Of a stretch of 64,000 nt of DNA, positions 24,348 to 36,454 are shown in pieces; the stretch's first letter is position 1; each line of letters opens with the position of its first letter. The notes under the pieces were generated by a model that was given only the letters and a program-made list of their open reading frames with translations, did not search any database and had not been told where the DNA came from. The stretch comes from a virus, in the IMG/VR virus record IMGVR_UViG_3300045592_000030; one strand, given 5' to 3'. The position numbers were made by a program, and so were the translations under genes.

Positions 24348-26183
24348 TTATTCCTGTGTAGCATCGGCAATGCCGGTCTTGCTGTTGTCAAGTGTGGTGA
24401 TAGCCTCTCGCTTGATGACCCAACGGAGGTGCGGGTCCCAGTCGTTGAACTGCGAGGCCACCTGCCAGGGTCTTAGCACCAGCTGCTGGGTAGGCATCAT
24501 CTGTAACTGCTTCATCAGATAGCGCGTGCGCATGTCGGTGCCACTGTTCTTTCCCGCCGCGCCGGGGGTGTTGCCGATAAGGGTAGAGTCCAGTCCCATA
24601 GCAAAGAAGATGATGCTTGATATTTCCAACAGTTCGGTCTGCTGTGCATCGGCATTGTTCTTACTGCTGCTTTCTATCTCCACTACCTTGAAGCTGTCGT
24701 GGTCTTTGCCGTCGCTGCCCGAGAAGGTGAAGGCGATAAGGCTCTGTCCGGCATTGGTGCGATGGTTGAGCCAGTTATTGATTTGCGTGAAAAGCTCATC
24801 ACGGAGCTGTGGTTTTGTCTTGATGGCTACTTCCTTGCCCTTTGCACGTTTCTGCTGTGCGTAGAGCGTCTGCTCGTTATAAAGCGAGTTGAGATAATCG
24901 TTGTGAATGTAAATCACGCGGCCAATGACATTAGCATTGCGCTTGCGCGTGTATCGGTCAGAGATGATCGTGGCGGCATATTCATAGACATCACCCGTGA
25001 AGATGCTGTGCCACGGCTGCACGGGATAGTAAGGCCGTCCGCTGGTAGGGTAGGAGCAAGGGAGGATGAAGTGTGTGCGTCGCTGCTCCGGGCTCTTATC
25101 CCTGTCCTCGCGCACATAGCGTTTCATGTCGGCCAGTGGTGTTTGCCAGGTCAGTGCGGGCAAAGCGACGATTTCCTCGTCCTTGATGTTTTTCAATGTC
25201 GTGGGGTCATCATAGAAGCGGTTGGAGAGATACACGTAGTTGATACGTCCGTCGTCGTCCATGCGCTCCAGTCGGCAGAGATGTGCCGGACGGTAGCGTA
25301 TGGCCTGTACCTTCGGCTTCCATACGGGTTCGAGTTTGTGGGTACTATCGTTATAGCTCTGCTGATTGATGTCGAGTTCGGGGAAACATATACCGAGCAA
25401 GTCAATATCACTGCCCAGTTGCAAGGCGGTCAGTCCGTTGCAGGTGTTGTCGCAAAGCTGCTGTATCTCCGGCGCGTCGAGCTGCCAGCGTTCCAAATCA
25501 TTATTATACTGATCTATCTGATTGTCGATGCTGGCAATAAGCGTATCGGTGCTGTTGCCGTTCTGCTCTTCTCTGTTGTCGCCATCGATAGGAAACATCG
25601 CGGCAGAATCGGGATCGTCGGCAACGCCCTGCATTTGCAACTGTACCTTCTCGCGCTGTAAGTCACGGATAAAGCCCTTGAGCAAGACGTTGGCAAAGGC
25701 GTATGGCACATCACCCTCTATCATCGTACCTCCGTTCTGATAGCGCACATAGTGGTACATGGGCTGCGGGCCTTGTCCGGCGAGCAAGTCGGTATTGAAC
25801 TTATGTCCTGCCGCGGTATAGGGAAGCATCGACGTGAGCAAGGCCACCACGTTAGGGATTTTGTTCTGTGCACCCCACGTGATATAGCCTCTGTCCTTTG
25901 TCCCCGCGTTGGCCACCAACTGCTCCGAGCCGCTGGTCTGCATCAGCAAGGGGAGCATACGGCGTTGGCCGGTGCCATCGTCCTGTCCGTTGCTACAACC
26001 GAGTTGTGCGTTGATATACTGTCCGTAGTCGCCACCCGGCATATTATTGTCGTCGTGAGTGTAGTGGTTAGGTGCCACGGCATAACCGGCTTCCAACAGA
26101 TGCTGCTGCACACGGGCAAACTGACTGGTGCCCTTGGCGGTGATCACGCGCCGGTCGGCTAATGTATTCTTTGTGCGTACCAT
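24348..26183 (-). CDS. Portal protein candidate
   Basis: 611 aa, first gene after late promoter copy 3 and next operon after the terminase. Call rests on size and position only. Confidence 0.4.
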   Translation of the reverse strand: MVRTKNTLADRRVITAKGTSQFARVQQHLLEAGYAVAPNHYTHDDNNMPGGDYGQYINAQLGCSNGQDDGTGQRRMLPLLMQTSGSEQLVANAGTKDRGYITWGAQNKIPNVVALLTSMLPYTAAGHKFNTDLLAGQGPQPMYHYVRYQNGGTMIEGDVPYAFANVLLKGFIRDLQREKVQLQMQGVADDPDSAAMFPIDGDNREEQNGNSTDTLIASIDNQIDQYNNDLERWQLDAPEIQQLCDNTCNGLTALQLGSDIDLLGICFPELDINQQSYNDSTHKLEPVWKPKVQAIRYRPAHLCRLERMDDDGRINYVYLSNRFYDDPTTLKNIKDEEIVALPALTWQTPLADMKRYVREDRDKSPEQRRTHFILPCSYPTSGRPYYPVQPWHSIFTGDVYEYAATIISDRYTRKRNANVIGRVIYIHNDYLNSLYNEQTLYAQQKRAKGKEVAIKTKPQLRDELFTQINNWLNHRTNAGQSLIAFTFSGSDGKDHDSFKVVEIESSSKNNADAQQTELLEISSIIFFAMGLDSTLIGNTPGAAGKNSGTDMRTRYLMKQLQMMPTQQLVLRPWQVASQFNDWDPHLRWVIKREAITTLDNSKTGIADATQE

Positions 26184-26205
26184 ATCTTTCTCGTTATTTC
26201 TAAGG

Positions 26206-26240
26206 TAAAGATAGTGTTTCGGGATAGGATATTAGGGACA
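26206..26240 (-). promoter_or_regulatory. Late-promoter-like motif copy 3 (TGTCCCTAA-N18-TATCTTTA)
   Basis: ttagggaca 26232-26240 and taaagata 26206-26213, with an 18-nt spacer. Confidence 0.55.
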
Positions 26241-26279
26241 CGAAAAAGCTCATCAGTGCTTTACTTCATACGCACAACC

Positions 26280-26323
26280 GCAATACTCCTTACTTTCAAC
26301 TGCAATACTCCTTACTTTCAACT
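26280..26323. repeat. 22-bp tandem repeat x2
   Basis: gcaatactccttactttcaact at 26280-26301 and 26302-26323. The 16-mer ttcaactgcaatactc recurs at about 50978-50993. Confidence 0.85.
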
Positions 26324-26330
26324 GCTAAAG

Positions 26331-26379
26331 AGAAAGCTCACAACCGCTAAACTTTGTGTATTGCGGTGGTGAGCTTTCT
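26331..26379 (-). terminator. Long hairpin after the methylase operon
   Basis: 17-nt arms agaaagctcacaaccgc / gcggtggtgagctttct with one mismatch and a 15-nt loop. The downstream T-tract is weak. Confidence 0.4.
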
Positions 26380-26383
26380 GTTT

Positions 26384-26454
26384 TTCTAAGAAATTGAAGT
26401 TGTTTTTCTAAGAAAAGTTCATCGTTTTTCTTAGAAAAGTAAGTTTCTAAGAAA
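26384..26454. repeat. Four spaced copies of the palindromic decamer TTCTAAGAAA / TTCTTAGAAA
   Basis: Copies at 26384, 26406, 26428 and 26445 (spacing 22, 22, 17), most preceded by gtttt. Confidence 0.8.
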
Positions 26455-26475
26455 TGGCGAGCGATAATGATTAAA

Positions 26476-26787
26476 CTACAAAGCTAATAGTGGATTGATA
26501 TAGCGGTCAGCGAAACGGGATTGAACAAAGATTTTCTCCACACGCTTCACGGGTCTGTCGCTGTTCATAATGTTGCTGATGCCCGTGGCCGCAATGGGTG
26601 TAAAGCCTTCGGGCATGGCATACTCACTTACAAAGACGGGCTGTGGTTTGTCCAGACACCAGCCATAGAAAGCGTCGAAATCAAACGAGGAAAGATATTT
26701 CTTCGTATTCTGATAAGGTGGATCGCAATAGATAACACTATGCGGTGGAACAGCTACATTTCTGTAGTCAGCTTGCGAGACGTGCAA
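26476..26787 (-). CDS. Dam-like (D12 class) adenine methyltransferase, C-terminal DPPY half; no ATG of its own
   Basis: SVIYCDPPYQ motif IV. The track start is TTG. The frame stays open upstream through the poly-G tract. Confidence 0.6.
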   Translation of the reverse strand: MHVSQADYRNVAVPPHSVIYCDPPYQNTKKYLSSFDFDAFYGWCLDKPQPVFVSEYAMPEGFTPIAATGISNIMNSDRPVKRVEKIFVQSRFADRYINPLLAL

Positions 26788-27626
26788 AGAGACGGAATGG
26801 CTGATACCCCCCCAAGTCTTTCTAAGCTCTGCAACCTTTCAAGGCTTTCTAAGCTCTCCAACCTTTCGAGTCTTTCTAAGCTCTGCAATCTTTCAAGGCT
26901 TTCTAAGCTCTGCAACCTTTCAAGGCTTTCTAAGCTCTGCAAACTTTGTAAAGACTCCAACCGCTGTAAGCGTTCCAGCCGCTCGATATTCGGGTTGCAT
27001 TCAAATTCGCGGATGTCGCTTGTAGATTTCTTTTTATCTTTCTTGAAATGACAGGAAGCGTAGAGCGGATTGGTCTGCAACACGCGCTCATCGCCATTGC
27101 GCTGCAAAGCTTCTACAACGGAGCCTTGAAAACGTATGCGACGGACATGGATATGGTTGTTGGTATCAGGATGACCGCAAAGCGATACTTTATCCTTAAC
27201 ATAGTCGCATATTTCCGGACAGAGCTGCTCCATCATCTGCCATCGGTCAAAGACGACGGCCTCGTGGCACGCACGCTTGTATGGTTCAAGCTGTTGGGAA
27301 TACATATAACTGCGTTGGTCGTTACCAAAAGAAAAGCACAGCCGGGCATACGAATCATGGTCTTTCAGCGAGAAAAAATCCTTGCACGAAATCCACCTGC
27401 GCTCATTGTGAAACTTACCCCGAATGGCATCTGGGAACACCAGTGCGGAGTCGGTGATGTCGTTGGCGATGACCTGCTTGTATCTGCCCGATACCATCGC
27501 GGCATGGCTCGCGGCACAGCCACCGGCAAACAAATCAACAAAGGTATCTGCACCCGGCAATGAACTCATCAGCCAACCAATGACACGGTTCTTACTGCCC
27601 TGATAAGGTAATCCGTAATTTTTCAT
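26754..27626 (-). CDS. Dam-like (D12 class) adenine methyltransferase, N-terminal AdoMet-binding half plus repeat tract
   Basis: YQGSKNR and FVDLFAGGCA (FxGxG) motifs. Ends 20 codons after the poly-G tract. Confidence 0.7.
   Translation of the reverse strand: MKNYGLPYQGSKNRVIGWLMSSLPGADTFVDLFAGGCAASHAAMVSGRYKQVIANDITDSALVFPDAIRGKFHNERRWISCKDFFSLKDHDSYARLCFSFGNDQRSYMYSQQLEPYKRACHEAVVFDRWQMMEQLCPEICDYVKDKVSLCGHPDTNNHIHVRRIRFQGSVVEALQRNGDERVLQTNPLYASCHFKKDKKKSTSDIREFECNPNIERLERLQRLESLQSLQSLESLERLQSLESLERLQSLERLERLESLESLERLQSLERLGGVSAIPSLCTSRKLTTEM
26807..26813 (-). repeat. Homopolymer G7 (C7 on the plus strand) at the frame break of the methylase
   Basis: One extra G would join frame 26754..27626 to frame 26476..26787, giving ...LERLGGGISHSVSLHVSQADY... 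Confidence 0.9.
26818..26952 (-). repeat. 27-bp tandem repeat, about 5 copies, inside the methylase ORF
   Basis: Unit ctttctaagctctgcaacctttcaagg at 26818, 26845, 26872, 26899 and 26926. Encodes (LESLERLQS)n. Each unit consists of three related 9-mers. Confidence 0.9.
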
Positions 27627-27940
27627 GCTGAATAAAATCTTGTGCCATCAACCTCTATCACCAGATAGTCGTTGATGCGTCGTATCTCGCCACTATTGAC
27701 AAACTTAATCATGTGCTGGCGCACACGGGGAAAGGCTTTCAGACAGATGCAATAACCTTCCTCCAAAACGCCCTGCTGAGTAACATACTTGATATGGAAC
27801 GGCACCTGCTGCTTGTGTCGTGCATCGGCAGGAGCGTTGTAACCTACGGTGTGATGACCCGTCAGCGGATCATCCCATTCCCATTTCTCGATATAGTTGC
27901 GTAGATACTCGAAACTGACTGTTGGATTATTCTTTGGCAT
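27623..27940 (-). CDS. Hypothetical protein
   Basis: 105-aa ORF between terL and the methylase. Confidence 0.5.
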   Translation of the reverse strand: MPKNNPTVSFEYLRNYIEKWEWDDPLTGHHTVGYNAPADARHKQQVPFHIKYVTQQGVLEEGYCICLKAFPRVRQHMIKFVNSGEIRRINDYLVIEVDGTRFYSA

Positions 27941-36130: not shown

Positions 36131-36454
36131 AATAGATATATTGTTTATTTCGATTTTGATTTCTACACCAAAAGTAAACAATACATTTTTCGTCAGGACG
36201 CAAAAATTAGGGGGAAAACCTTTGTTTTCGGGAAAGAGCAAAAAAAAAGTGAAAACAAAAAATCCGCATATCCTCACGGACAGCGGATCAACCATTGAAT
36301 TTATGAAATACAAAAAAATCAGCAAATGAAAGCGCATCCCTGCGCCATCATTTGCAATGCCTATAGATATGAATGAAACAATCTATTTTCTAACATACAA
36401 AACATTTCCGACATTTTTAACCTTTTCAATATACAATCTTACTATTCAATCTTA

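Follow-up and report, generated by a model that had tools for sequence, protein, structure and literature searches.

What does it mean when a DNA methyltransferase gene of a phage is found divided at a run of guanines, with its catalytic half displaced into another reading frame? This question is raised by a locus in a 64,000-nt stretch of the virus record IMGVR_UViG_3300045592_000030 (the whole of this stretch is hereafter the window), the minus strand of which carries, from 27626 to 26476, a gene predicted to encode an orphan, phage-borne N6-adenine DNA methyltransferase of the Dam family (alpha-class, D12). Comparison with its relatives points to the poly-G run probably being a contingency locus operated by slipped-strand mispairing, at which eight guanines (G8) would turn the predicted methylase ON, and either seven (G7) or nine (G9) would turn it OFF.

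The arrangement in the window itself is that of the G7 allele. The open reading frame (ORF) actually encoded there carries motif X (YQGSKNR) and motif I (DLFAGGCA, 27519-27530), passes through exactly seven guanines, and stops 17 codons beyond the two glycine codons, without reaching the catalytic DPPY motif. The latter is found in a second frame, which lacks any ATG, has a TTG at 26787 as its earliest start-like codon, and stays open back through the tract. Adding one G, or removing two, joins these frames into a single ORF of 383 amino acids (aa) that reads ...LERLGGGISHSVSLHVSQADYRNVAVPPHSVIYCDPPY..., in which DLFAGGCA (aa 31-38) precedes CDPPY (aa 302-306), with the recognition region between them. 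The preliminary description of this DNA, which proposed that the YQGSKNR and FAGGCA half was split from an ATG-less DPPY half at the G7 tract, and that one extra G would yield a D12-class methylase of about 383 aa, therefore proved accurate on each of these points. The tract is the sole G or C run of at least seven in the window, where a first-order Markov model expects approximately 1.7, and by chance alone such a run is unremarkable. What goes beyond chance is its coincidence with the frame break, at the border between a repetitive linker and the strand leading into DPPY, and its consistent behaviour across relatives.

The identity of the joined protein is supported by both profile and structural comparisons. 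It matched the Pfam family PF02086 (MethyltransfD12) at 55.5 bits (E 8.9e-15, with a cut-off of 22), the family to which its relatives were also assigned in precomputed annotations. A profile of 85 homologues matched the Protein Data Bank (PDB) entries for T4 Dam, at residues 5-74 and 146-184, and E. coli Dam, with the catalytic half aligning to residues 146-184. An AlphaFold2 model of a relative, P0001, which is 93-96% identical, had a confident core, with a mean predicted local distance difference test score (pLDDT) of 82.7, and the top 24 PDB matches found by Foldseek were to T4 Dam, E. coli Dam, DpnM and Mcbe1, with probabilities of 0.98-1.0; the template modelling (TM) scores were only 0.27-0.46, owing to a long insert. 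The enzyme shares its fold family and motif order with T4 Dam and P1 Dam, the presumed role of which is to protect phage DNA from restriction, but it differs from T4-type Dam in the distance separating motif II from DPPY (approximately 245 aa, rather than approximately 110), in its variable (Lxx)n repeat, and in its slippage tract. The NCBIfam model of the canonical, GATC-specific Dam, TIGR00571, scored 39.6 bits against a cut-off of 114.85, hence GATC specificity should not be assumed, and the protein is best predicted to be a member of the Dam family that is not a canonical Dam.

Support for the joined frame came from a search of 5.8 billion proteins, which returned hundreds of full-length homologues encoded by single ORFs, covering 96-100% of the joined protein, the closest of which read ...LERLGGGISHSV..., exactly matching the prediction. 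The state of the tract was then compared between related loci, using lengths read from assembled contigs and therefore representing the consensus of each. Among the DNA loci of the main clade (L043-L061), G7 was present in the window, L047, L048 and L055-L059; the in-frame G8 in L050-L054; and G9 in L060. Interrupted versions of the tract that preserve the frame were found as GGAGGGGG in L043-46 and L049, and as GGGGAGGG in L061. Further alleles were drawn from a listing of 90%-identity protein clusters, the products being designated by P-numbers. These comprised approximately 23 in-frame products, G7-type products ending in GGVSAIPSLCTSRKLTTEM before the stop codon (P0126, P0130, P0006 and P0007), and G9-type products ending in GGGY...RLAS before the stop codon (P0146, P0147 and P0151), the C-terminal partner ORFs of the latter type (P0141 and P0145) starting with MGGGI. 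A scan of metagenome DNA with the pattern GTYTCGCAAGCTGAYTAY gave, among the matches listed, only chance matches and the already known LAHS01 contig.

The same behaviour extends to a sister clade (L182-L183), which has the same synteny and 54% protein identity. L182 has G8 at the same codon, L183 has the interrupted but in-frame GGGGGGTGG, and the protein sequences of approximately 22 alleles include three G9-type products, ending in ...NGGGYS before the stop codon, and two other out-of-frame variants. Even the interrupted variant GGGGGGTGG seems to slip: judged from the protein sequences, P0155 (..LMGGWIANI) of this clade fits G7-TGG, and P0157 (MGGVANI) fits a 2-nt deletion just past the run. 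The preliminary description had put forward a phase-variable methylase, and had suggested comparing the tract among related genomes; that comparison, in returning G7, G8, G9 and interrupted versions, with G8 in frame and both G7 and G9 recurring across lineages and in the sister clade, favours phase variation.

The distribution and condition of these alleles are those expected of a contingency locus: a tract within an ORF sets the frame, it is polymorphic by one nucleotide in both directions among close relatives, the changes recur, and the OFF alleles are otherwise intact. In a neighbour-joining tree of the proteins, constructed from their N-terminal region, OFF alleles were scattered beside ON sisters, with one tight lineage containing G8 (P0003, P0136 and P0144), G7 (P0007) and G9 (P0151) alleles, and the G7 locus L048 differing from the G8 locus L051 by just 6 mismatches in 1147 nt. 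Approximately 14 of the approximately 18 disrupted alleles were broken at this tract of about 8 nt, within a gene of 1.1 kb. When the run was repaired in L047, L048, L060 and the window, each gave an uninterrupted ORF, without further lesions. Across the 100 codons beyond the run, the ratio of non-synonymous to synonymous divergence (dN/dS) was 0.04-0.21, also for pairs in which an OFF allele was involved, indicating that the out-of-frame half is under purifying selection. Furthermore, G8 persists between lineages of the main clade separated by a synonymous divergence (dS) of 0.6-1.0, although GGG is the glycine codon used least in the window (43 of 753, or 5.7%), with GGGGGG used in none of the 49 Gly-Gly pairs.

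Three alternative explanations of the frame break need to be set against these observations. Homopolymers are error-prone on some sequencing platforms, and the preliminary description had allowed for a sequencing or assembly error in a genome that truly has G8 and an intact gene. This is extremely unlikely. The exact 290-aa product of the window (P0121) was recovered from at least nine contigs, originating from at least five samples, across Joint Genome Institute (JGI) data and wastewater data in the European Nucleotide Archive (ENA), a recurrence that excludes a one-off assembly error. Two of the JGI contigs match the window at 100% identity along 4.4-4.9 kb, and an ENA wastewater contig has 2 mismatches, with all having G7; G7 and G9 alleles are present in independent SPAdes, MEGAHIT and Logan assemblies; and the neighbouring genes, encoding the terminase and a 105-aa ORF, are intact, and never frameshifted, in all related loci. 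The second alternative, programmed recoding, of which the preliminary description had named the ribosomal form, would have G7 as the functional allele, from which the full-length enzyme is made through -1 ribosomal frameshifting or transcriptional slippage on the G run. The position of the catalytic half in the -1 frame, without an ATG, would suit such a mechanism. Homopolymer runs can also cause low-level slippage of polymerases or ribosomes, such that OFF alleles may be leaky. However, most relatives have one in-frame ORF, with either G8 or an interrupted run, meaning the requirement for a shift is not conserved, and the G9 alleles would need a shift in the opposite direction. Nor does the locus have the usual accompaniments of recoding: the zero-frame sequence CUU GGG GGG GUA does not fit the canonical X XXY YYZ heptamer, there is no Rfam frameshift element, and the predicted folding of a 131-nt segment that spans and follows the tract is no more stable than that of shuffled sequences (minimum free energy of -28.2 kcal/mol, against a mean of -30.7; z = +0.69), with no stimulatory RNA structure. 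Programmed recoding is therefore very unlikely. A split enzyme of two subunits was also considered, and was rejected, as the catalytic half lacks an ATG and the relatives are single ORFs.

The remaining alternative is neutral decay at a mutational hotspot, whereby the methylase gene is accessory and can be dispensed with, the poly-G run is no more than its most frequent breaking point, the G7 of the window is a fixed and effectively irreversible pseudogene, and no bet hedging is involved. Several observations weigh against a contingency locus and in favour of such decay. The same G7 allele is the consensus in each of the samples from both sources, such that in the strain represented by the window the consensus is stably OFF, and the loss could be a fixed one. 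The gene has also been inactivated in other ways among the relatives: by a T added to a T-run around codon 63 in L052/P0148 (at approximately 1585-1590 of the L052 locus) and P0004, alongside a G run of G8; a recurrent truncation to 132 aa (...ACHEDFICIRKPTM before the stop codon) in three contigs (P0139, P0140 and P0142); and a truncation to 65 aa in P0137. Hence the gene is dispensable, and is sometimes truly lost. In several lineages the tract has been locked by substitutions that interrupt it, hence switching is not universally maintained. Additionally, recombination could inflate the number of independent events counted on the tree, and several tract states were assigned from protein sequence alone. 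The stable G7 consensus, the other lesions and the locked runs mean that neutral decay retains some weight. Nevertheless, it is unlikely, given that the examined OFF alleles are all otherwise intact, that the out-of-frame half has so low a dN/dS, that G8 has been kept at the same codon in both clades in spite of the rarity of GGG, and that both -1 and +1 alleles adjoin ON sisters within tight lineages.

The gene in which this tract lies occupies a conserved position (Table 1). The order of the terminase gene, the 105-aa ORF, the methylase gene and the 611-aa ORF is kept in every related locus. Neither the 105-aa nor the 611-aa ORF had a match in family searches, and a label of 'portal' for the latter was dropped, as no family match supports it.

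Table 1. Positions of the features at the methylase locus, in the numbering of the window.
Feature	Position	Strand	Description
Whole D12/Dam-family N6-adenine DNA methyltransferase gene (predicted)	26476..27626	-	G7 (OFF, -1) allele in the window; G8 would encode 383 aa; full-length single ORFs of relatives span 100% of the joined protein
ORF actually encoded in the window	26754..27626	-	290 aa and stop; ATG at 27626; motif X, motif I, helical target-recognition region, repeat linker, 17 out-of-frame codons
Homopolymer G7, slippage tract (putative)	26807..26813	- (C7 on + strand)	G8 in frame; G7 and G9 out of frame
Catalytic half	26476..26838	-	-1 frame, uninterrupted between 26838 and its stop codon (26476); DPPY at 26713-26724
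In-frame linker	26814..26990	-	Immediately 5' of the G run; codes for (Leu-Glu/Gln-Ser/Arg)n
Conserved 105-aa ORF	27623..27940	-	Its stop (TGA) and the methylase start (ATG) overlap as ATGA; in relatives it always precedes the methylase
Large terminase subunit, 665 aa	27952..29949	-	phrog_2, E 2e-5; 30-32% identity to terminases; intact (665-666 aa) in all related loci, upstream
Conserved 611-aa gene	24348..26183	-	Downstream, on the other flank of the methylase slot; conserved in relatives

The window comes from a tailed phage that is uncultured, with a large terminase subunit, a head protease and a tape measure protein of 1877 aa. Related contigs of 83.7-84.3 kb, which recur in wastewater and other metagenomes, suggest that its genome is approximately 84 kb. 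The phage is distant from those already deposited. A megablast of the locus against INPHARED found no match, with tblastn giving only distant and partial matches to the methylase; a protein-pattern scan of IMG/VR found no close relative; and the terminase is only approximately 30% identical to that of the nearest deposited phage. No close relative was found in representative bacterial genomes, and as the best match was a 38% identical gene in Treponema ruminis, no host could be assigned.

The intergenic spacer between the methylase and the 611-aa gene (26184-26475) is packed with repeats. These include four palindrome-like boxes (TTTCTAAGAAA/TTTCTTAGAAA), conserved in relatives, of which three are phased 22 nt apart (26379-26455); another 22-nt repeat, present in three copies (26262-26327); and a 26-nt inverted repeat (26327-26383). 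These look like a regulator-binding array or a promoter region. A scan for promoters and terminators found none above the expectation from shuffled sequences, and an Rfam search gave only spurious microRNA matches on the intergenic palindromes. A different homopolymer, A9 on the plus strand at 36240-36248 (T9 on the coding strand), lies after a hairpin in the leader upstream of the head-protease gene; it is TTTTATTTT in L043, is absent from L061, and is probably non-coding. The window is also nearly devoid of CTAG, with 4 occurrences against 82 expected from trinucleotide frequencies (a ratio of 0.05), and strongly depleted of GATC, with 101 against 291 (a ratio of 0.35), whereas the other 4-base palindromes have ratios of 0.74-0.96. 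Such depletion suggests the avoidance of restriction sites, which would bear on what the methylase might protect.

Were the tract to operate as a contingency locus, the following sequence of events would be expected. The methylase gene lies in the late, or packaging, module of the phage, between the terminase gene and the next gene of the structural region. Slippage at the poly-G hotspot would change the length of the run, with G8 specifying the full enzyme, and G7, as in the window, or G9 causing truncation before DPPY, such that no methylation would be expected. As the rest of the gene is intact, it could be restored by a later slip of +1 or -1. Switching might thereby be fast and reversible within populations, and would toggle the methylation of progeny DNA. 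This could serve as a hedge between hosts in which the methyl mark would block restriction, and others, or methylation-dependent nucleases, that make the mark costly.

The G run is accompanied by a second variable element, which went unnoticed in the preliminary description: the linker directly upstream of it. The 3' part of this linker (26814-26947) is a 27-bp tandem repeat, with five copies of 90% identity, that encodes LES, LER and LQS triplets. Between close relatives, the distance from the NIERLE anchor to the G run is 96, 123, 126, 141, 150 or 177 nt, varying mostly in 27-nt steps and never departing from the frame. Of the 85 family members, 83 have four or more Leu-x-x triplets in succession, and up to 25, hence at the protein level the repeat is characteristic of this Dam subfamily. 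In the AlphaFold2 model of P0001, the repeat region (residues 200-263) is a single long helix of low confidence (pLDDT 35-56). Any effect of the repeat copy number on activity or specificity is speculation. It is conceivable, if rather improbable, that the G run and the 27-bp repeat form one two-tier hypervariable cassette, maintained by selection within one subclade of a large and uncharacterised group of Dam proteins that have (Lxx)n linkers, with the G run acting as the ON/OFF switch, and the repeat number (a linker of 32-59 codons) tuning the geometry between recognition and catalysis, and hence activity or sequence specificity, to give a graded epigenetic bet hedging against restriction. 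The number of TAEL repeats in the specificity subunits of the Type I systems EcoR124I/II changes the length of the recognised spacer. This too is an in-frame change in the copy number of a short peptide repeat between functional regions, and is offered as a lead only; the effect on the spacer is known in that system, whereas the window's enzyme is presumably monomeric.

Homopolymer switching of phage methylases has precedents, and the locus described here joins a small number of phage loci of this type described earlier, which lowers its novelty; its particular value is in the breadth of the natural evidence and the coupled repeat. The adenine methylase ORF of the Bordetella phage BPP-1 has a G homopolymer of variable length, and frameshifting was proposed to control its expression (Liu et al. 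2004, as summarised in PMC4791379). In this gene, bpm (L188; NC_005357, 29758-30513, minus strand), a G8 run at codons 194-197 (MPGGVV) falls between DPPY and the LDPFAGSG cofactor motif, immediately preceding the latter, such that, as in the window, a G run separates the catalytic and cofactor-binding halves. Unlike the gene in the window, bpm encodes a protein of 251 aa with the opposite motif order, DPPY being first, which is not of the D12/Dam family; it has no adjacent in-frame repeat; and its neighbours, in a temperate podophage, are the genes for the repressor and the primase, rather than a packaging module. The evidence also differs in kind, with that for BPP-1 being heterogeneity in one sequenced stock, whereas here G7, G8 and G9 are found across many metagenomes and two clades.

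Other phage genes switch through comparable means. In T2 and T4, an A-run forms a contingency locus in the DNA-glucosyltransferase gene agt, the ON and OFF states of which in T2 trade sensitivity between two restriction systems (Gomez, Barrick and Waters, bioRxiv 10.1101/2025.10.21.683753), and Campylobacter Fletchervirus phages have poly-G tracts in their genes for receptor binding (Sorensen et al. 2021, Cell Rep 35:109214). The common feature, as proposed for the window, is homopolymer slippage within a phage gene that gives reversible +1 and -1 frameshifts and mixed progeny. However, those cases concern a glucosyltransferase and receptor-binding proteins, with A-runs or tracts of G7-11, and were shown experimentally in cultured phages, whereas the window's gene encodes a predicted Dam-family methylase in an uncultured phage, for which the evidence is comparative. 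The phase-variable methyltransferases of bacteria, a textbook subject (PMC13076061, among other sources), likewise have a simple-sequence repeat within an ORF that is switched ON and OFF by slipped-strand mispairing; examples are the Type III mod phasevarions of Haemophilus, Neisseria and Moraxella, and cj0031 of Campylobacter jejuni, which is a Type IIG gene with poly-G. These are chromosomal components of restriction-modification systems that rewire host expression, whereas the window's orphan phage methylase would be expected to act on phage DNA, and its repeat is a mononucleotide run between the two halves of the enzyme.

These observations have consequences for how such genes are recorded, as methylases from viral metagenomes that appear 'split', or as a 'pseudogene', at a homopolymer can represent genuine alternative states, which should be neither silently corrected nor discarded. 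They also draw attention to a large subfamily of Dam in which the Leu-x-x repeat linker is variable, and add natural, cross-sample evidence, from many metagenomes and two clades, to an idea that has been based on a few cultured phages. If the switch works, then the phage would release a mixture of methylated and unmethylated genomes. Hence its host range, with respect to restriction-modification systems and methylation-dependent nucleases, would be a property of the population, rather than a fixed trait.

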